From a virus (Duplodnaviria; Caudoviricetes), in IMG/VR virus record IMGVR_UViG_3300025121_000014, positions 1 through 64,000 of that record: DNA of 64,000 bases; one strand, given 5' to 3'. The notes beneath the pieces were generated by a model, which saw only the letters and a list, made by a program, of their open reading frames with translations, had not been told where the DNA came from and ran no database searches. A program made the position numbers and the translations under genes. This document shows, piece by piece, positions 23,658 to 47,763 of the stretch. The stretch's first letter is position 1. Each line of letters begins with the position of its first letter.

Positions 23658-24978
23658 TGTGTTTCCAGAACTTAAACAAGTTCCTTCTCTTTAAACGCTT
23701 CATTGCTTATGCCATCAAATGATGGTCTTATTTTGGCTCTGCGTTTGTAATCGGAAGTCCCTCCCGATATATTTTTTCTATATCCTTCATTAAAGATATT
23801 GATTGCTGCATTTACATCTCTATCATGAACTTCACTACATTCAGGGCAAGTCCAAGTTCTATCTTTCAAATGTAATGGTTGATTGATATAACCACATTTA
23901 TGACAGGTTTTACTTGAAGGAAAAAATCTATCTATATGTATTATTTCCTTTTCATTCCACTCTGCTTTGTATGTAAGAATATCAATGAATTTACCCCAAC
24001 TAACATCACCAATGGCTTTTGCTAATTTATGGTTTTTCATCATTCCTTTTACATTCAAATCTTCAAGATAGATTTTATCGTATTGATTTACAAGGTTTAA
24101 TGTAGTTTTATGAATTAAATCCATTCTTGAATTAGTTATTTTTTCATGAATTTTTGCTACTTTAATCCTTTGTTTTTCACACCTTGATGAACCTTTTGTT
24201 TTTCTTGATAGATATTTTTGATTTTTGGTTAAAAGTTTTTCATAGTGTTTAAGAAATCTATGGTTCTTGATTTTCGTTCCATTAGATAACACTAAAAAAT
24301 CTTTTATTCCTAAATCTATTCCTACTGATTGGTTTGTTTTAACTAAAGGTGTATATTCCTTTTCAGTTAGAATTGAAACAAAGTATTTACTAGTAGGGGT
24401 TTTACTTAATGTTGCTTTTTTAATTATTCCTTTAATTTCTCGTTCCATTATCATTTTAATTCCTTCTTGAAATTTTGGTATGAAAAGTAATACATCTTCA
24501 TTTCTAACAAATTGAGGACAAGTAAATGAGTTTTTTGATTTTTTTGACTTAAAACGAGGAAATTGAGTTCTTTTATTAAAGAAATTTTGGTATGCCTGAT
24601 CTAAACATTTCAATGAATATTGAAGTGATTGACTATTAACTTCTTTTAACCAATCTGTTTCATTTTCTTGCTTTAATTGTGTTAAACATTTTGATTGTTT
24701 GTTATAAGTTATTGATTTTTTACTATTTAAATATTCTTCTTTTCTTTGATTAAGAAAATAATTATATGACCACCTAACTGAACCAAAATGTTTATTTAAA
24801 AGAACTTCTTGTTCCTTTGTTGGTTTCAGTCTAAATTTATACGTATATTTAATTATTTTCACTTAAACAAAATTGTTTTTTTTGTATAAGTATATATTAA
24901 ACAAAAAAAGTCACATTTTTCCATTTTTGAAAGTCAAATTCATCCATTAAACTGAAGATTTAACGGTTTTCTTTGACA
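23658..24978 (-). mobile_element. IS200/IS605-family (IS1341-like) tnpB-only element, right end apparently truncated
   Basis: Left-end hairpin GTCAAAGAAAACCGTTAAATCTTCAGTTTAATGGATGAATTTGAC near-identical to that at 46475; no tnpA. Confidence 0.75.
23672..24862 (-). CDS. tnpB: TnpB RNA-guided nuclease
   Basis: YKFRLKPT HTH, GIDLG, LEDL, CHKCG...CPEC, DRDVNAAIN. Confidence 0.92.
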   Translation of the reverse strand: MKIIKYTYKFRLKPTKEQEVLLNKHFGSVRWSYNYFLNQRKEEYLNSKKSITYNKQSKCLTQLKQENETDWLKEVNSQSLQYSLKCLDQAYQNFFNKRTQFPRFKSKKSKNSFTCPQFVRNEDVLLFIPKFQEGIKMIMEREIKGIIKKATLSKTPTSKYFVSILTEKEYTPLVKTNQSVGIDLGIKDFLVLSNGTKIKNHRFLKHYEKLLTKNQKYLSRKTKGSSRCEKQRIKVAKIHEKITNSRMDLIHKTTLNLVNQYDKIYLEDLNVKGMMKNHKLAKAIGDVSWGKFIDILTYKAEWNEKEIIHIDRFFPSSKTCHKCGYINQPLHLKDRTWTCPECSEVHDRDVNAAINIFNEGYRKNISGGTSDYKRRAKIRPSFDGISNEAFKEKELV

Positions 24979-29702: not shown

Positions 29703-30749
29703 ATGCGAAAACCAAATGGTTATTGGACAAAAGAAAGATGCCACGAAGAAGCATTAAAATATACTAAAAGGAATAATTTTATAAAAAATTCAAATAATGC
29801 ATATGAAATTGCAAGAAGAAATAATTGGTTAAATGATATATGCCATCATATGATAAATAAAGTATATAAACAAAAAGGATATTGGACTAAAGAAAAATGT
29901 AAAGAAGAAGCATTAAAATATTATACCAGAACAACCTTTGAAAACAATTCACATAGTGCATATCGTATTTCATTAAGATGTGGTTGGTTAGATGATATAT
30001 GTTATCATATGGAACTACAACATAAGCCGAATAATTACTGGACAAAAGAAAGATGTCATAAAGAAGCACTAAAATATAACACAAGAACAGATTTTCAAAA
30101 AGAATCAAATGGTGCATATGATTCAGCATTAAGAAATTTATGGTTAGATGAAATATGTTATCATATAATAAAAAAAGGAAATTATAAAAAAAGATGTATT
30201 TATGTATATGAATTTAATGATAATAGTGCATATGTTGGATTAACATATTATATAGAAAATAGACATAATAGACACTTAAATGATAAAAATAGCCAAGTAT
30301 ATAAACATATTAATAAAACGAAAAATTATAAACTTATTAAATTAACTGATTATATTAATGTTAATAATGCTATAAAATTAGAAAAAGAATATGTTAATTT
30401 ATATAAAAACAATGGTTGGAATATATTGAATAAAGCAAAAACTGGATCAATAGGAGGAAATATTTTAAAATGGACATATGATAAATGTAAGAAAGAAGCA
30501 TTAAAATATAACACAAAAAGTGAATTTATAAAAAATAATGGTAATGGTGCATATTCATCTGCTAGTAAAAATAAATGGTTAGGTGAAATATGTAGTCATA
30601 TGAAATCAAAAATTATTAAATGGACTAAAGAAGATGAACTATTTCTATTAGAAAATTATAAAAATAAAGGTGTAAATTTTTGTATGGAAAAATTAAATAG
30701 AAATAAAAACGCAATACGAAGTAGATATTATAAAATACAAATTAAATAA
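29703..30749 (+). CDS. GIY-YIG-type homing endonuclease with WTKE.C..EALKY repeats
   Basis: IYVYEF...YVGLT...R...H, LE...W..LN core plus four helical DNA-binding repeats. Confidence 0.7.
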   Translation: MRKPNGYWTKERCHEEALKYTKRNNFIKNSNNAYEIARRNNWLNDICHHMINKVYKQKGYWTKEKCKEEALKYYTRTTFENNSHSAYRISLRCGWLDDICYHMELQHKPNNYWTKERCHKEALKYNTRTDFQKESNGAYDSALRNLWLDEICYHIIKKGNYKKRCIYVYEFNDNSAYVGLTYYIENRHNRHLNDKNSQVYKHINKTKNYKLIKLTDYINVNNAIKLEKEYVNLYKNNGWNILNKAKTGSIGGNILKWTYDKCKKEALKYNTKSEFIKNNGNGAYSSASKNKWLGEICSHMKSKIIKWTKEDELFLLENYKNKGVNFCMEKLNRNKNAIRSRYYKIQIK

Positions 30750-30826
30750 ACATAAAATACAAATTAAATAAACAAAAATGACATTATATTCTATATTAAT
30801 AGAACTAAAAAATAATCAAATTATGA

Positions 30827-31843
30827 ATGAATAAAGTGAAATATGGACAATTTTATACTAAAAATTCTCATTATATTGTTGGAGATTTAATAAATATTAT
30901 TCCTAATGATAAAATAGTTGTGGATCCTTTTGTTGGATATGGAGATTTAATAAAATTATTACAAAATGAAAAAGAAATTTATGATATTGATCCTAAAATA
31001 GATAATACTATAAAGCAAGATACATTATTAAATCCATTAAATTATATTAATAAATGGATTATAACTAATCCACCTTATTTAGCAAGAAATAAAAATAAAG
31101 ATAAAACTCTTTATGATAAGTATGATTTAAATGATTTATATAAAATAGCATTAAAAACAATAATGGGTTGTGAAGGTGGTGTAATTATAATACCATTAAA
31201 TTTTTTTTCAGGACAAGATGATAAAATAAGAAAAGAATTTTTATCACAATATAAAATAACAAAATTAAAAATATTTGAAGAACAAGTATTCGATGATACA
31301 TCATATACTGTTTGTGCATTTTCTTTTATAAAAGAAAATAATGATAGACAAATAATAAATACTATATTTTTACCATCTGAAGAAATTAAAAATATAGAAT
31401 TAACATTATCTAATAATTATATGTTTGGTGAAAATTTTTTTAAAATAATAAATCATGAAAATCCATTAAAAATTACAAGATTAGTAAATTATAATGTTAT
31501 AAAACCAAATACATATTTATATTTAAGAGCTACTGATACTGGAACAGATGATGGTAGGATTAGTTTAACTATAAATAAAAATCATTTTTATGGTAAAAAT
31601 ACAGATAGAACATTTGCTACAATAATATTATCAGATGATTTTAGTAATATAGATATAAATCAACAACAAAATATATGTAATATTTTTAATTTTTTATTGG
31701 AAAAATATAGATTAGAATATAATTCATTATTTTTAAATAATTATAGAAATTCTACAAAATCATATTCAAGAAAAAGAATTAGTTTTAATATGGCTTATAA
31801 ACTAATATCATATATTATTAAAAATGAAAAATGGGATGTTTAA
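30827..31843 (+). CDS. Type II N6-adenine DNA methyltransferase
   Basis: GQFYT, DPFVGYG (motif I), TNPPY (motif IV). Confidence 0.88.
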   Translation: MNKVKYGQFYTKNSHYIVGDLINIIPNDKIVVDPFVGYGDLIKLLQNEKEIYDIDPKIDNTIKQDTLLNPLNYINKWIITNPPYLARNKNKDKTLYDKYDLNDLYKIALKTIMGCEGGVIIIPLNFFSGQDDKIRKEFLSQYKITKLKIFEEQVFDDTSYTVCAFSFIKENNDRQIINTIFLPSEEIKNIELTLSNNYMFGENFFKIINHENPLKITRLVNYNVIKPNTYLYLRATDTGTDDGRISLTINKNHFYGKNTDRTFATIILSDDFSNIDINQQQNICNIFNFLLEKYRLEYNSLFLNNYRNSTKSYSRKRISFNMAYKLISYIIKNEKWDV

Positions 31844-32603
31844 ACATTCCATTTTTTTAATATATTAAATATAGATTCTATATTGCATACATATGTAAAA
31901 TCACTATTATATTTAGATAAGTAATCCCATCTTTTTTTATAATATTCACCATCTAATAATGATATATATCTTATATTTTCATTTGCACATTGAATAGCTT
32001 GTTTAGCAAAATCAACAGCATCTTTATATTGGTTTGCTTGCGCACCGCCTTCTTCTTCTGTTGTTTTATCATAAATATATATGATTTTATTATTACCAGA
32101 AATTTTAAAATCTATAGATTTTGTTGATAATGATTTATCATAATTAAGGTTATTAATATACATCAATTTACCATCACATAAATATAAAGCATCATTTCCT
32201 TTATCTGGTAATTTTACAATATTATAACCGTTATATTCTATAAATGATTTTTTAAAACTTTCACAAGTGTTTTGCTTTTTAGTGTTTTTAATTAAAATTG
32301 ACATTATAATTTCATCAGCTTCAGTTAAATCATCTATTCTATCGTATGAAATTATTCTATCTATAAAATTATTACATTTAATTTCAATGTTATCTTTATC
32401 TAGACCACTATTATATAATATACTATCTAATTTTTGAATATATTCACTTTTATTTTTTTCTTTTGTATTGATTTAAAAACTATTTTTAATTTATCTTGTA
32501 ATTTTTCTACAGATAAATATCTTACTACCTTATTTAATTCTAATGGTATTTCACCATTTATTATACTTTCATTAACTTTATCAAAATTGATATTATTCGT
32601 CAT
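31840..32603 (-). pseudogene. Restriction-endonuclease-like gene split by a -1 frameshift (A7 tract 32453-32459); ORF track shows only 31840-32304
   Basis: IDFK, GGAQANQYKD, LLDGEYY motifs. Frame is open upstream of the annotated Met; the 5' part (MTNNINF...) lies in the adjacent frame; 764 nt = 255 codons - 1. Confidence 0.6.
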
Positions 32604-32881: not shown

Positions 32882-33688
32882 ATGATAATAAAGTTTAATG
32901 AATATATATTGGAAGCAAAATTAACAGAAGGTTATGATGATTATATACGTCAATTTAATAGTATATATTCTTTAATTAAAGACATTGGTGGTACAGTTAA
33001 TCCAATTGAGTTGAAAGCTAAAAAATCTTTTTTAAAAAAAGATATAGATGCTTTTATAGAAAGAATAACAGAAGATAATATATCATCGACTGATATAGAT
33101 AAAATTCAACAATATATTAAAGATAAAAAGAAATTACTACATAAAAAATTATTTAATTTATTTGAAAATTTAGATAATATTAAAAGAGATATTAAAAGAA
33201 AAAAATTAAGAAAAACACAAGAAAGATTTGTCGAAGATAATCCAATAATTAATGGATTAAATAAAATAGATACATTAGAAAGTTTTTATAATAACATAGA
33301 GACTTTATTAAAAGATAATAGTAAAACTGATGTTCTATTTTTCTTATATGGTTTATTAGCATACTTCAATAATAATTCATTAAGTCGTGTAGATTTATTT
33401 AGTTTTATTTCTATGCATGATGATGAAATGACAGGAAATCTTATTAGAAATTTGAATTGGGAAATGGCAACATGGGATGATAAAAAATATGACCAATGGC
33501 ATTATATTGGTGGAGTTATGAATCAATTATTTAGGGGAACTGATAAATTTACAGATACAGATTTAAAAGAAGAAAATCCATATACTGATAGAGAAAATGC
33601 TATTTATGAAATATCAGATGAATTCTATTCATATATAAAATCAGTCTTAGTAAAATTTGTGGAAACTGGACAATTTGATTTAATTTAA
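32882..33688 (+). CDS. CTS-bearing hypothetical protein
   Basis: MIIKFNEYILE start; late promoter at 32850-32858. Confidence 0.55.
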   Translation: MIIKFNEYILEAKLTEGYDDYIRQFNSIYSLIKDIGGTVNPIELKAKKSFLKKDIDAFIERITEDNISSTDIDKIQQYIKDKKKLLHKKLFNLFENLDNIKRDIKRKKLRKTQERFVEDNPIINGLNKIDTLESFYNNIETLLKDNSKTDVLFFLYGLLAYFNNNSLSRVDLFSFISMHDDEMTGNLIRNLNWEMATWDDKKYDQWHYIGGVMNQLFRGTDKFTDTDLKEENPYTDRENAIYEISDEFYSYIKSVLVKFVETGQFDLI

Positions 33689-33695
33689 ATTATTA

Positions 33696-34325
33696 GTTGT
33701 ATCTACCTATCATTCCAAGGTTATATCCAACATTGGTAGTATAAATAGGGATGATTGTTATGTTGTATCTACCTATCATTCCAAGGTTATATCCAACGAA
33801 ACAAGTTTTTTCTGAATTACAGACACTGTTGTATCTACCTATCATTCCAAGGTTATATCCAACTAATTATAAAAATGAAAAGATAATGTAAGGGTTGTAT
33901 CTACCTATCATTCCAAGGTTATATCCAACACTGAATATTTATGGTATTCCGTCTGAAGCGTTGTATCTACCTATCATTCCAAGGTTATATCCAACTCGAT
34001 GGTAAATGCCTTAAACGGTATTAGAGTTGTATCTACCTATCATTCCAAGGTTATATCCAACCATAATCTAATAATGGAATATTACTCCCTCGTTGTATCT
34101 ACCTATCATTCCAAGGTTATATCCAACATATTGGGAAGGTGAACTATTAGCAGGTTCGTTGTATCTACCTATCATTCCAAGGTTATATCCAACGTATTAT
34201 GTGATACTTTTTGTTCTTTATCAGTTGTATCTACCTATCATTCCAAGGTTATATCCAACAAATGATATTTTTAATATACCTATGAACTTGTTGTATCTAC
34301 CTATCATTCCAAGGTTATATCCAAC
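33696..34325. CRISPR. CRISPR array: 10 identical 36-nt repeats, 9 spacers of 30 nt
   Basis: Repeat GTTGTATCTACCTATCATTCCAAGGTTATATCCAAC at 33696, 33762, 33828, 33894, 33960, 34026, 34092, 34158, 34224 and 34290. Confidence 0.99.
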
Positions 34326-34476
34326 CTATGACCATTTAAATACTTAGTTTAAAGATAGTTAGTGAGTGCTTACTGAAATTAAAATATATAATAAAAATAC
34401 AAATGAAACATAAGTCTCTTTATTTTTTAATTTCTACCTCACCGTAAGGGCATACAATTGCCCCATCTAAATATTA
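34326..34476 (-). ncRNA. Leader / candidate tracrRNA-like region between cas12f and the array
   Basis: GGGCA-N6-TGCCC hairpin (34448-34463); short partial repeat matches at 34354-34362 and 34433-34439; AT-rich middle. Confidence 0.4.
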
Positions 34477-35739
34477 TCAAAGAACTTTTTCTTTATTTTT
34501 TAATTTATAATATTGTGTATTTTCATATTTATCAACATATAATTTTGATTTGGCAATATTATATGCTGCATTATAATCAGAATCTATATTTTCATTGTGT
34601 ATTTTACACTTATCATTTTGACATATAAATGTATCCCCATTTCTTTCCCCTATTTCCCCACATATAGAACATATTTGACTAGTATGATAAGGATCGACAA
34701 ATTTCAAGTTTATTCCATAAGAATCTACTTTATATTTTAACTTGTCTATAAAATTAGAAATTGGCCAATATCTAGAAAAAAATGAATTCTTATCAATATT
34801 TCTATTTAATAATTCCATATTAATCTGTTCTACTTTATACTTTATACAAAAATCAATAACCTGTTTACTTAATTTATGTAAAGCAGTATTAGTAAAATTA
34901 ATTTCTTTTTTTCTGATAGTGTCTAAATATTTTAATTTTCTATTTCTACCGTGTCCACCTTTTGCCATAACCATAGATTTCTGGTATTCTCTTCTTTTCT
35001 TATTAATATCCATCTTTACACGGATTAAATCATCAGAATGAATTGATTTTTGTACATGTATATTATCATTTAATCTTATTGATACAAATCGTCTAACACC
35101 TAAATCGATGCCACATACTCTACCTTTTACTTTTTCGTAATCTTCAGATTCTGTTTCATATGTAAATATTATATAATAATGTTTGTCTCTTTTATTGTAT
35201 GTTACGTTAAAAACTCTATTAATATTTAGTGATTTATCATTTTTATCCATTAATCTTTCTAATAGTTTTTTGTTACCACTTTTATCTTTACCAAATAATA
35301 GTTTAAAATCTAATCCATTTTTTATTCTTAATATGATATCATCATTTACATTATGAAAATTTGGATTAATCCCACCACTATTAAATTGGTATATAATAGG
35401 TGCTCCATATTTATATAATCTAGGTGTTCGTTTACCTTTAAATAATCCGTTTTTTATGTCATTAGAAAAATCTTTCTTAACCCTATGACATATATTAGAT
35501 AATATAGCTGTTGGGAATGTTGGATGCAAATCTCTTACAGAGTGATATACTTTTGTTGTTTTTGCAGATTTTACTGGAATAATACTTTCTGACAATTTTT
35601 GTTTTATAAATACCCATTCGTGTGAATATGCATCATTATATATTTTATTTGTTTGATACATTAAATTATTTATATAATCAAATGTATTTTTATTTAATGG
35701 CACTATTCTTATTTTTACTGCGGATATGTATTTATTCAT
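34477..35739 (-). CDS. cas12f: Compact type V effector, Cas12f-like (TnpB-derived), RuvC intact
   Basis: GIDLG (RuvC-I), GHGRNRKL helix, NMEL (RuvC-II), WP...DKLKYK...G...VDP.HTSQ.CS.CG, DSDYNAA (RuvC-III); 420 aa; adjacent array. Confidence 0.82.
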   Translation of the reverse strand: MNKYISAVKIRIVPLNKNTFDYINNLMYQTNKIYNDAYSHEWVFIKQKLSESIIPVKSAKTTKVYHSVRDLHPTFPTAILSNICHRVKKDFSNDIKNGLFKGKRTPRLYKYGAPIIYQFNSGGINPNFHNVNDDIILRIKNGLDFKLLFGKDKSGNKKLLERLMDKNDKSLNINRVFNVTYNKRDKHYYIIFTYETESEDYEKVKGRVCGIDLGVRRFVSIRLNDNIHVQKSIHSDDLIRVKMDINKKRREYQKSMVMAKGGHGRNRKLKYLDTIRKKEINFTNTALHKLSKQVIDFCIKYKVEQINMELLNRNIDKNSFFSRYWPISNFIDKLKYKVDSYGINLKFVDPYHTSQICSICGEIGERNGDTFICQNDKCKIHNENIDSDYNAAYNIAKSKLYVDKYENTQYYKLKNKEKVL

Positions 35740-35837
35740 ATTATTGTTTCTTTAATTATAAAGATAAACTAAAAAATAATAAAAACCAAATATTTTATAA
35801 AATATTTTATATATAGATGTAAAAATAAAAACATTAA

Positions 35838-46562: not shown

Positions 46563-47763
46563 TTTAAAGGAAAAATAAAATATCTTTAAAAATGTTAAAA
46601 TCATATAAATACAGAATATACCCAAATCAAGCCCAAAAAGAACTTCTTTCAAAGATTTTTGGTCAAGTAAGATTTGTATATAATCTTGGTTTAGAAACTA
46701 AAATAACAGCATATACAGGAAACAAAAAAAATATTGATGTGTTTGATTTAAATAAGCAAATTAAAGAATTAAAAGATAATGAATGTGAATGGTTAAAAGA
46801 AAGCCCATCACAAGCACTTCAAATGAGTATGTCTAATCTAGATAATGCTTATACAAATTTCTTTAGAGGAAAAGGTTTTCCAAAATTTAAGAATAAATAT
46901 TCAAAACAATCATTTCAACTACCACAAGGTGTTTGGTTATCAGATAATAATAAACAAATTTTTATACCGAAATTAAAATTCACCGATATAGATTTACATC
47001 GTGAATTTAAAGGCGATATTAAAACTGTAACAGTAAGTAAATCAATAACTAATAAATATTATATATCAATTTTAACAGATAATTTACAACCTAAACCAGA
47101 AAAAAAACCAATTAAGTTAAATACAACAATTGGAATTGATTTAGGGATTAAAGATTTTGCTATCACTTCAGATGGAAAGAAATTCAAGAACCACGATTTC
47201 TTTAAATCTGCTTTAAGAGAACTAAGGGTTGAACAGCGATCTCTTAGTAGGAAAAAGAAAGGATCAAACCATTACAATCAACAAAAAATGAAAGTCGCTT
47301 TAATACACGAACACATTAAAAATCAAAGAGAAGATTATTTACATAAAATCAGTAAATATTTAGTTGATAATTATGACACTATATGTATTGAAAATCTTGG
47401 TGTATCTAATATGATTAAAAATCATAAATTATCTAAAGCAATATCAGATATGGGATGGAATAAATTTAAATCTATGCTTGATTATAAATGTGAATGGTAT
47501 GGTAAAAATTTAAGTGTGATTGGTAGATTTGATCCGTCAAGTAAATCATGTAGTTCTTGTGGGACAATAAATAAAGAATTAACATTAAAAGATAGAGAAT
47601 GGGTTTGTAAAGAGTGTGGTGTTAAACACGATAGGGATATTAATGCTGCAATAAATATAAGAAATTTTGGGTTGAGGAACCAACCTAGCGTCACACAAAG
47701 TGAATGGTTGCATTGTGCTTGTGGCGTAGAAACACACAAATCTTCAGTTTGTGTGTAGTTCAT
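46474..47763 (+). mobile_element. IS200/IS605-family tnpB-only element with both ends
   Basis: Left end GTCAAAGAAAACCACCAAATCTTCAGTTTGGTGGATGAATTTGAC; right end GAAACACACAAATCTTCAGTTTGTGTGTAGTTCAT. Confidence 0.8.
46592..47758 (+). CDS. tnpB: TnpB RNA-guided nuclease
   Basis: YKYRIYPN, GIDLG, IENL, CSSCG...CKECG, DRDINAAIN. Confidence 0.92.
   Translation: MLKSYKYRIYPNQAQKELLSKIFGQVRFVYNLGLETKITAYTGNKKNIDVFDLNKQIKELKDNECEWLKESPSQALQMSMSNLDNAYTNFFRGKGFPKFKNKYSKQSFQLPQGVWLSDNNKQIFIPKLKFTDIDLHREFKGDIKTVTVSKSITNKYYISILTDNLQPKPEKKPIKLNTTIGIDLGIKDFAITSDGKKFKNHDFFKSALRELRVEQRSLSRKKKGSNHYNQQKMKVALIHEHIKNQREDYLHKISKYLVDNYDTICIENLGVSNMIKNHKLSKAISDMGWNKFKSMLDYKCEWYGKNLSVIGRFDPSSKSCSSCGTINKELTLKDREWVCKECGVKHDRDINAAINIRNFGLRNQPSVTQSEWLHCACGVETHKSSVCV

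Follow-up and report, generated by a model that had tools for sequence, protein, structure and literature searches.

A type V-F1-like (Cas12f) CRISPR-Cas locus, with cas12f, the tracrRNA and the array in this order on the minus strand, was recognised on a huge phage, with a probability of about 0.85 for this reading. The window, i.e. the whole stretch of 64,000 nt that was analysed, belongs to a very AT-rich phage from groundwater (GC 22%); the neighbouring genes and related IMG/VR contigs of 365–676 kb point to a huge phage as the carrier. The miniature system is complete, consisting of a 420-residue Cas12f nuclease, a helper tracrRNA (predicted) and a nine-spacer array; the analysis demonstrates these parts with their homology and complementarity. 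The locus belongs to the known Cas12f family, as a divergent member, and is not a new Cas12/Cas13b hybrid. Its features are as follows:

34477..35739, minus strand: cas12f gene (P0001), 420 aa; open reading frame and translation, Pfam and NCBIfam matches
34345..34466, minus strand: predicted tracrRNA core; covariance model R1 and minimum-energy fold
34326..34353, minus strand: linker and leader, from the anti-repeat to the first repeat; comparison of intergenic regions
33696..34325, minus strand: CRISPR array, 10 repeats and 9 spacers; exact repeat spacing and tracrRNA complementarity
35740..35837, minus strand: intergenic region upstream of cas12f, presumed promoter region; position only

Organisation of the locus and its array

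The array adjoins the gene, the ten identical repeats starting 151 nt 3' of the cas12f stop codon. On its upstream side (35740..35837) cas12f is divergent from an ORF of 1002 aa, and a promoter scan of this region gave no enrichment over shuffled sequences.

Ten identical copies of GTTGTATCTACCTATCATTCCAAGGTTATATCCAAC (plus strand) occupy positions 33696–34325 with a start-to-start distance of exactly 66 nt, so that the 36-nt repeats enclose nine spacers of 30 nt; the strict geometry described in the first-pass annotation, with ten identical repeats, therefore holds. A "tenth spacer" of 30 nt (34326–34355) was considered and rejected because no repeat follows it and it overlaps the predicted anti-repeat; this segment was assigned to the tracrRNA and the leader. 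Since the stem-1 loop and the anti-repeat of the predicted tracrRNA can base-pair with the repeat of the window, the array with its nine spacers was read on the minus strand, the functional repeat being GTTGGATATAACCTTGGAATGATAGGTAGATACAAC, followed by the spacer. This orientation is supported by the homologous locus L001, where gene and array share a strand, the array lies 3' of the gene, and the repeat farthest from the gene is degenerate. The plus-strand reading, in which the repeat shares 26/36 positions with the Al3-like repeat and has ATATCCAAC at its end, was rejected because neither a hairpin with a GTTGGA loop nor an anti-repeat was found for it outside the array (the best candidate, a 9-mer, fell within a methyltransferase-like ORF) and because the covariance model places the minus-strand tracrRNA at a position homologous to that of other loci.

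The end-to-end fold proposed earlier for the repeat (GTTG/CAAC and ACCT/AGGT) is its predicted minimum-energy structure, but its stability was no greater than that of shuffled sequences (z −0.9 and −0.65). A locus from the window's own phage (L003) carries a seven-repeat variant without the three trailer-end spacers, which fits a deletion rather than a new acquisition. In public reads, 12 runs hold the locus, all of them DNA and kept as contigs; these contigs are interrupted at the array, which in one of them is collapsed to a single repeat.

The Cas12f nuclease and its relatives

P0001 matched the Pfam families Cas12f1-like_TNB (1.3e-15) and OrfB_IS605. Its best NCBIfam match was the general model guided_TnpB (145 bits, cut-off 100), and its score against the Cas12f2 model was 87 bits, far under the cut-off of 450; NCBIfam holds no Cas12f1-specific model. 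The RuvC residues D212, E309 and D388 and the zinc ribbon C357/C360/C373/C378 were invariant in an alignment of 34 sequences and in register with the motifs of CnCas12f1, in agreement with the intact 420-aa effector annotated before. The protein thus corresponds to the small single effector of type V-F1, with a split RuvC D/E/D and a C-terminal TNB zinc ribbon.

The best relatives of solved structure in phmmer searches were CnCas12f1 (8HR5, 2.2e-48), RhCas12f (9NZP, 1.2e-44) and Al3Cas12f (9NZO, 6e-44), named according to PMC13186708; ISDra2 TnpB reached only 3e-8, versus 2e-48 for CnCas12f1. With the AF2 model of P0001 (pLDDT 86.7), Foldseek gave 8hr5 as top match (E 1e-25), a TM of 0.71 for AsCas12f and of 0.53 for ISDra2 TnpB. 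In both sequence and fold, P0001 resembles characterised Cas12f more than transposon TnpB, at an identity to characterised enzymes of only about 27% (Foldseek alignment, CnCas12f1). Fold and domain order are those of the tracrRNA-dependent V-F1 enzymes CnCas12f1, RhCas12f1 and Al3Cas12f (8HR5; 9NZP; 9NZO/9NZR), with which P0001 shares the RuvC D/E/D, the CxxC...CxxxxC zinc ribbon and the C-terminal ...YYK.K tail; its size is near that of RhCas12f (415 aa). The window also shares with these systems 36-nt repeats ending in CAAC or similar. It differs from them in being phage-borne, with 22% GC, and in its stem 2, which is a long AU-rich hairpin; in addition, P0001 matches the three enzymes at 1e-44 to 2e-48, whereas other sub-clades reach 1e-85 to 1e-258 (L024 protein with Al3Cas12f, 1e-258; L109 protein with RhCas12f, 7.5e-134). 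In the tree, the lineage of the window (with L085 and L001) forms a long branch in a basal polytomy.

An ordinary transposon TnpB beside an unrelated or decaying array is hardly credible as an explanation. The window does hold two canonical TnpB genes (23672–24862, minus strand, and 46592–47758, plus strand), and the general guided_TnpB model is the best NCBIfam match of P0001. Nevertheless, P0001 lacks HTH_OrfB_IS605, present in both canonical copies, and lies far from them in the tree (root branch 2.8, outgroup end branch 5.6); the RNA predicted downstream fits the tracrRNA model and shows complementarity with the adjoining repeat, and ten identical repeats are at odds with a decaying array. 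The arrangement of an IS200/IS605 TnpB (N-terminal HTH_OrfB_IS605, omega-RNA fused to a single guide at the transposon end, no array) was not found for P0001, beside which there are an array and a separate predicted tracrRNA.

To place this Cas12f locus among its relatives, 164 loci were compared, comprising L001–L004 and 160 homologue loci. An array was present near the gene in 83 of the 164, four of these "arrays" being 54-nt coding repeats and one of the loci, L003, coming from the window's own phage. Many loci showed 36-nt repeats with a period of 65–66 nt, 3' of the gene, and others had shorter or upstream arrays; beside homologues of P0001, GTTG...CAAC repeats of 36 nt with spacers of 30 nt are the usual form. 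The nearest relatives are the Cas12f-like loci of other huge phages in IMG/VR (L085 and L086/L001, 422 kb and 676 kb; L115, 365 kb), with proteins of 420–423 aa and 39–40% identity, the same order of gene, tracrRNA and array, no Cas1 or Cas2 in their records, and repeats 19–25/36 identical to that of the window. Peptides of P0001 by themselves gave no match in IMG/VR, from which the phage itself was judged to be absent from that collection. The tracrRNAs of L001 and L085 differ in having an extra 5' module, with the repeat-end complement in a stem arm and not in the stem-1 loop.

CasPhi and Caslambda are proteins of 700–800 aa and are not known to need a tracrRNA. Unlike them, the window locus is predicted to be of the tracrRNA-dependent Cas12f1 type, and fold matches of P0001 to Cas12l and Cas12j-like entries were weak (TM about 0.4). 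The compact type V systems published for phages, namely CasPhi/Cas12j, Caslambda/Cas12l, Cas14j/k and viral V-F1/V-U3 hits (PMC12607003, PMC11748809), have in common with the window a compact array, one small effector, no adaptation module and a large phage as carrier.

The predicted tracrRNA

Between gene and array, a stretch of 151 nt encodes a predicted tracrRNA of the type found in the Cn/Rh/Al3 Cas12f clade. A covariance model (R1) derived from 18 loci other than the window matched positions 34466–34345 (minus strand) with 47.9 bits (E 1.9e-8), the only match on both strands of the window. Stem 1 (34464–34447) carries the loop AUUGUA (34458–34453), and stem 2 is closed by GUGAG (34442–34438) and CUCAC (34366–34362); the predicted minimum-energy fold contains both stems (z −2.86). 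In the alignment of the 18 loci, 99% of cells were paired versus 77% in shuffled alignments, with 42 double-sided changes versus 13.6, values that none of 500 shuffles reached; covariation was present in both stems.

The anti-repeat CUAACUAUC (34362–34354), read from the sequence, has 8 of 9 bases paired with GAUAGGUAG of the repeat. Additionally, AUACAA of the repeat has its complement in UUGUAU, which comprises the last five loop bases and the base that opens the closing stem strand. The anti-repeat duplex is short (5–9 bp plus 5–6 bp). The two-part tracrRNA:repeat pairing of type V-F1, by pseudoknot loop and anti-repeat, is predicted in silico. The stem-1 loop and the repeat end covary across loci (GTTGGA/TCCAAC, GTTGTA/TACAAC, ATTTTG/CAAAAT, GTTTCA/TGAAAC), the window having TTGTAT/ATACAA. 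A common layout of stem-1 loop, GAGG...CACUC and anti-repeat is seen in the sgRNAs published for Al3, Rh and Os Cas12f (PMC13186708, supplement); with GAGG...CACUC in stem 2, it was also found in the window and in the 18 other loci. The linker and leader (34326..34353) are conserved with locus L001 (...ATTTAAAT..GGT.ATAG).

Simple alignment and RNAduplex scans for the anti-repeat gave AT-rich noise only, and a duplex-energy matrix failed to tell cognate and non-cognate repeats apart, owing to the bipartite pairing and the dominant effect of GC content; the hairpin-loop test and the covariance model took its place.

By homology to CnCas12f1, RhCas12f and Al3Cas12f, a course of events from expression of the locus and processing of its RNA to dimer formation and cleavage of a target may be outlined as follows. 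The tracrRNA, encoded directly after the cas12f stop codon, would make two contacts with each repeat: its stem-1 loop would bind the last bases of the repeat (AUACAA) to form a pseudoknot, and the anti-repeat, 3' of the conserved CACUCAC element, would bind GAUAG(GUAG). In the mature guide, a spacer would then come after the 3' portion of the repeat. With its intact RuvC site, Cas12f would cut PAM-flanked double-stranded DNA, probably as a dimer bound to a single guide (an asymmetric homodimer on one guide RNA is inferred from the family; PMC13186708).

Repeat likeness, adaptation and role

The first-pass annotation had taken 36-nt repeats, 30-nt spacers and GTTG...CAAC ends as the hallmark of the type VI-B arrays of Bacteroidota. 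VI-B arrays and the window do share these traits, and VI-B arrays often lack cas1/cas2 of their own as well, but the geometry is not diagnostic. Besides being the norm beside Cas12f homologues, it was found in 401 Bacteroidota genomes once each beside Cas13b, beside Cas9 (II-C), beside a dCas12f–sigma factor pair and in an orphan array. Cas13b turned up in few of the sampled genomes (one of 401, followed by two weak matches in 301), and the comparison set for VI-B consisted of two tool-verified arrays, G325 (with Cas13b at 746 bits and Csx27) and G519, and the published PspCas13b repeat.

Identity of the window repeat to these three was 23/36, 19/36 (counted by hand) and 18/36, respectively, versus 15.1 ± 2.6 in controls with the middle shuffled; the part in common, in the same transcript sense, is ...TTTGAAGGGTAnnnACAAC, that is, the 3' half ...TTTGA.GGGTA....CAAC. 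The likeness to Cas13b repeats put forward in that annotation is real but not specific: repeats beside Cas12f homologues reached 19–25/36 (L115, 25/36; L053, 24/36), and the best match was a Bacteroidota orphan array (G129, 27/36). In this low-GC genome, which gave no Cas12f or Cas13b match, GGTCATAG lies three bases upstream of the first repeat; in the window it abuts the repeat directly.

The same protein clade and repeat family are found in the dCas12f-sigma-E systems (Hoffmann et al., bioRxiv 10.1101/2025.06.10.658865; PDB 9N9C), whose repeat in a Sphingobacterium genome, GTTGTTACTCATCACAATTTGAAAGGTATACACAAC, is 21/36 identical to that of the window. A scan of genome contigs with TTGAAAGGTANNNNCAAC gave, among the matches listed, mostly chance singles and two real arrays, both of dCas12f–sigma factor systems. 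One repeat family, in the same sense, appears to be common to Cas12f, dCas12f-sigma factor and Cas13b arrays, and may deserve a survey; if confirmed, it would bear on how class 2 systems without adaptation genes acquire and keep arrays.

The proposal that an independent TnpB-derived nuclease captured a VI-B/II-C-compatible array, or that a dual-use array gives crRNAs that load or decoy host Cas13b, is highly improbable. It could draw on the likeness to true VI-B repeats in the same sense, on the long branch of the window lineage in the polytomy, on the negative search for adaptation genes in the window and on the gain of spacers by VI-B arrays through II-C Cas1, a point of the annotation that is borne out by PMC8092290. 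However, the same repeat family and geometry occur, with equal or higher identity, beside many Cas12f homologues and also beside dCas12f–sigma factor pairs, and the predicted tracrRNA, which fits the window repeat, has the architecture known from the Al3, Rh and Cn clades; this speaks for a shared ancestry of protein, tracrRNA and array. The effector is a RuvC DNA nuclease, whereas Cas13b is a HEPN RNase; Cas13b guides have the repeat 3' of the spacer, and in the window the 3' part of the repeat would stand 5' of the spacer, with a tracrRNA. No VI-B effector (Cas13b with two HEPN, Csx27/Csx28) was found in the window: its only ORFs above 900 aa are SbcCD-like or the 1002-aa protein, which had no match to the NCBIfam VI_Cas13b model (a true Cas13b scored 746 bits with it), and the Pfam sweep of the other ORFs gave nothing Cas13b-like among the families listed. 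The observation of the first-pass annotation is confirmed and its interpretation partly supported; its special reading fails because protein and repeat both fall within a described Cas12f clade, an outcome that it had itself named as counting against it.

As annotated, the window holds no recognisable adaptation module: Cas1, Cas2 and Cas4 were not found in the Pfam sweep of its 64 other ORFs of at least 100 aa, among the 25 listed of 28 matched families. Five related huge-phage records, of which four are 98% complete or more, likewise lacked Cas1 and Cas2. Any new spacers would therefore have to come through host Cas1-Cas2, and the use of host adaptation genes is plausible and generic for phage CRISPR loci.

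Exact single-pattern scans found no protospacers among INPHARED phages or in the window, none in IMG/VR for the three spacers tried, and only chance-level matches in the five related huge phages. Spacers of related arrays did not match the window, the six listed being copies of window spacers in L003. The lack of phage protospacers, together with relatives such as the nuclease-dead dCas12f-sigma systems of the same repeat family (bioRxiv 10.1101/2025.06.10.658865), would suit a non-cleaving, regulatory use of the Cas12f-family system (RNA-guided repression, host takeover), which is nonetheless very unlikely. In the dCas12f-sigma systems a truncated, nuclease-dead protein is paired with an ECF sigma factor, and the arrays are degenerate; P0001, on the other hand, is full length relative to RhCas12f, without C-terminal truncation, its three RuvC residues and zinc ribbon are intact and invariant, and no sigma factor or HTH partner adjoins cas12f. 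Most likely, the type V-F1-like locus would serve to attack rival phages or plasmids, or else the host genome, a role already suggested for CRISPR loci of other phages.

A broader reading, considered unlikely, is that GTTG...CAAC Cas12f arrays (phage, gut, Al3-like and dCas12f-sigma) and Bacteroidota VI-B arrays form one same-sense repeat family, kept alike by shared host adaptation machinery acting in trans, e.g. II-C Cas1-Cas2. If so, a Bacteroidota host integrase could extend the phage array and host Cas13b might bind its pre-crRNA. Huge phages with CRISPR but without adaptation genes are an already published pattern, of which this is one more case. With a 420-aa nuclease and a predicted tracrRNA core of about 120 nt, the system is a candidate hypercompact editor of modest interest, beside RhCas12f (415 aa) and AsCas12f (422 aa), and the Cas12f family gains a deep-branching, phage-borne lineage.

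Organisation of the locus and phylogeny of its nuclease

Judged from its sequence, the locus is a real type V-F1-like minimal CRISPR-Cas system on a huge phage, made up of cas12f, a predicted tracrRNA and a nine-spacer array:

34477-35739, minus strand: cas12f ORF, 420 aa (protein P0001)
34466-34345, minus strand: predicted tracrRNA, covariance-model match
33696-34325, minus-strand reading: CRISPR array, 10 identical 36-nt repeats, exact 66-nt period

The window had a GC content of 22% and carried phage-type genes. The ten identical 36-nt repeats and 30-nt spacers described in the first-pass annotation were confirmed; at a 66-nt period the repeats leave nine spacers, all unique, and such an array cannot be due to chance. 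The 30 nt beyond the "last" plus-strand repeat are predicted anti-repeat and leader rather than a tenth spacer. The end-to-end folding ascribed to the repeat was recovered as its predicted minimum-energy structure, with a stability no better than that of shuffled sequence. The minus strand was taken as the functional reading, with a predicted crRNA order of GTTGGATATAACCTTGGAATGATAGGTAGATACAAC and then spacer, on two grounds: the complementarity of the predicted tracrRNA to the repeat, and the layout of the nearest relatives, where gene and array share a strand with the array downstream and where degeneration affects the repeat farthest from the gene. L003, another assembly of this phage, had seven repeats; the three trailer-end spacers were missing and the leader-end spacers were identical, which looks like deletion rather than new acquisition. 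The locus was also present in groundwater metagenomes. Public runs containing it were all DNA, kept as contigs, and these contigs ended at the array.

P0001 matched Cas12f1-like_TNB and OrfB_IS605 (Pfam) and guided_TnpB (NCBIfam, 145 bits; cut-off 100). Residues D212, E309 and D388 and four zinc-ribbon cysteines were invariant in an alignment with 33 homologues and lined up with the catalytic motifs of CnCas12f1, confirming the intact Cas12f-like nuclease proposed at first pass. The best solved structures by sequence were 8HR5 (2.2e-48), 9NZP (1.2e-44) and 9NZO/9NZR (6e-44), which correspond to CnCas12f1, RhCas12f and Al3Cas12f, respectively (PMC13186708). With the AlphaFold2 model (pLDDT 86.7), all top 20 Foldseek matches were Cas12f structures: CnCas12f1 was matched at E 1e-25, and AsCas12f, SpCas12f1 and OsCas12f at TM ~0.7. 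ISDra2 TnpB scored TM 0.53.

An IMG/VR contig of 676 kb encoded the nearest homologue, P0002 (420 aa, 39-40% identity); a contig of 422 kb held a close copy of it. Stretches encoding relatives of P0001 numbered 405 in the metagenome contig scan and 458 in the IMG/VR scan. Among 164 loci (160 from both scans, plus L001-L004), an array-like repeat lay near the gene in 83; four of these (L050, L113, L114 and L119, 54-nt period, units GGTGCATCCTCAGCTACAGGA...) were array-detector false positives, most likely coding tandem repeats. Many of the arrays consisted of 36-nt repeats with a 65-66-nt period and lay on the gene's own strand, downstream of it; others were shorter or upstream.

When 78 sequences were placed in a tree, with a canonical TnpB gene of the window itself as root, P0001 and the protein of the 422-kb phage formed a pair (SH-aLRT 100) on a long branch, within a basal polytomy alongside array-bearing clades. 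As those clades hold close relatives of characterised enzymes (L109 protein against RhCas12f, 7.5e-134, and CnCas12f1, 1.3e-126; L024 and L010 proteins against Al3Cas12f, 1.3e-258 and 1.3e-103; L047 protein against CnCas12f1, 1.7e-88), P0001 stands as a separate, deep-branching lineage in the Cas12f1 group and is no close orthologue of the characterised enzymes.

One Cas12f-like sub-clade (L020, L036, L039, L045, L071, L081 and L162) lay beside GC-rich repeats of 27-29 nt (22 nt recovered in L162), mostly with a 61-62-nt period, which resemble type I-E repeats and are wholly unlike the 36-nt arrays. Array exchange or chance adjacency could account for them.

Predicted tracrRNA

The single-guide RNAs of Al3Cas12f, RhCas12f and OsCas12f have a common plan, in which the loop of a 5' hairpin pairs with the final 5-6 nt of the repeat, ...GAGG... 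and ...CACUC... strands then close a variable stem 2, and the anti-repeat follows (PMC13186708, supplement). The minus strand of the window immediately after the cas12f stop reads GGGGCA-AUUGUA-UGCCCU, UUAC, GGUGAGGUAG, ~70 AU-rich nt, GCACUCACUAA and CUAUC. UUGUAU of stem 1 is complementary to AUACAA of the repeat, and CUAACUAUC pairs with GAUAGGUAG of the repeat at 8 of 9 positions; the predicted tracrRNA shares with these guides the stem-1 loop directed to the repeat end, stem 2 and the anti-repeat.

The same elements were found in other loci at equal distance from the array, and the stem-1 loop and repeat end changed together across loci (GTTGGA/TCCAAC, GTTGTA/TACAAC, ATTTTG/CAAAAT, GTTTCA/TGAAAC, GCTTTG/CAAAG). 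In an alignment of 18 regions, from which the window and its two nearest relatives were left out, the two stems were paired in 99% of cells (77% in shuffles), with 42 double-sided changes against 13.6 expected, a number matched by 0 of 500 shuffles; slid controls collapsed. The covariance model from these regions gave a single match in the 64-kb window, both strands being searched (47.9 bits, E 1.9e-8), and also picked out the equivalent position in the 676-kb and 422-kb phage contigs (L001 and L085). Both stems were present in the minimum-energy fold of 34466-34345 (z -2.86).

The motif GTTCTTTGA occurred at 34478-34486 (minus strand) and also in L001, L085, L010, L115 (a 365-kb huge-phage contig), L014, L024, L027 and L042, preceding stem 1 of the tracrRNA by 12-40 nt in these loci. 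It encodes the last cas12f codons (V-L-stop) in the window, L001, L085 and L010, and lies 30-50 nt beyond the stop, in non-coding DNA, in Al3-like loci and L115. Conserved in either setting, it may be a tracrRNA promoter element.

Relation of the repeat to type VI-B arrays

The first-pass annotation had read the locus as a Cas12f paired with a type VI-B-like array, either captured from the host or of dual use with host Cas13b. The window repeat was compared with the type VI-B repeats of two genomes, G325, whose array adjoins Cas13b (NCBIfam VI_Cas13b, 746 bits) and Csx27, and G519, and with the published PspCas13b repeat. In the Cas13b sense these share ...TTTGA.GGGTA....CAAC with the window minus-strand repeat, with identities of 23/36, 19/36 (hand count) and 18/36, respectively, against 15.1 +/- 2.6 of 36 in middle-shuffled controls. 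The likeness is therefore real, but it is not specific to type VI-B: repeats beside Cas12f homologues reached 19-25/36, that of a dCas12f-sigma factor array 21/36, and that of a low-GC Bacteroidota orphan array 27/36, its last 13 nt being identical.

The 36+30 geometry and GTTG...CAAC ends had been regarded as a type VI-B hallmark. Among 401 sampled Bacteroidota genomes, GTTG-N28-CAAC arrays with 29-31-nt spacers were found once each beside Cas13b, II-C Cas9 and dCas12f with an ECF sigma factor, and once as an orphan; as the format also occurs beside Cas12f homologues, it is not a type VI-B marker. The capture reading is not supported: by repeat and predicted tracrRNA, the array is a normal one of its own protein clade. 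That it serves or decoys Cas13b is unlikely. The wider V-F/VI-B likeness, real by repeat comparison and not found stated in the literature searched, could reflect either shared descent or adaptation machinery shared in trans.

In Sphingobacterium genomes, L193 (2180-4536) and L226 (1730-4587) carried long degenerate arrays of the same family (GTTGTTACTCATCACAATTTGAAAGGTATACACAAC) adjoining an ECF sigma factor; the L193 array also lay beside a 364-aa TnpB-like protein, the putative L226 counterpart (a 233-aa ORF) being cut by the locus end. Both match published dCas12f-sigma-E RNA-guided transcription systems. The orphan array (L307, 276-742 of G129:C8; 31.5% GC locally) has the repeat closest to that of the window, and GGTCATAG, which directly abuts the repeat in the window, is separated by three bases from the start of its first repeat, on the upstream side. 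Genome G129 yielded no match to Cas12f or Cas13b. This array may hint at the phage host lineage.

Gene neighbourhood, adaptation and targets

23672-24862, minus strand: canonical TnpB, 396 aa (HTH_OrfB_IS605, OrfB_IS605, TNB)
30827-31843: DNA-methyltransferase-like gene (phrog_18657)
31840-32304: Tsp45I-restriction-enzyme-like ORF (weak, E 2.8e-4, below Pfam cut-off)
32882-33688, plus strand: immediate neighbour, 268 aa
35838-38846, plus strand: immediate neighbour, 1002 aa, internal repeats of ~75-80 nt
46592-47758, plus strand: canonical TnpB, 388 aa (HTH_OrfB_IS605, OrfB_IS605, TNB)

Given its two canonical TnpB genes, the phage bears transposon-type RNA-guided nucleases besides the CRISPR-associated one. 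Next to the CRISPR locus, in 29703-32304, a GIY-YIG protein gene with three 156-nt tandem repeats (29709-30177), the methyltransferase-like gene and the Tsp45I-like ORF may form a small nucleic-acid-conflict island. Neither immediate neighbour had a Pfam or PHROG match; in NCBIfam the 268-aa protein had none and the 1002-aa protein a weak, sub-threshold one (halo_CC_star_2, 21.8 bits; cut-off 140).

As noted at first pass, cas1, cas2 and cas4 were not found: a Pfam sweep of the window's 64 other ORFs of at least 100 aa matched 28 families, and none of the three was among the 25 of these that were listed. Cas1 and Cas2 were likewise absent from five related huge-phage records, four at least 98% complete, in agreement with published surveys of such phages (PMC12607003). 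The spacer search from which a PAM was to be derived yielded no protospacer in INPHARED phages, the window itself or related huge phages, nor in IMG/VR for the three window spacers searched; spacers from related arrays did not match the window.

The phage-borne compact CRISPR setting has already been published (PMC12607003, PMC11748809). The minimal V-F1-like system of the window is apparently complete and, on the sequence comparisons, a divergent addition to the known Cas12f family.
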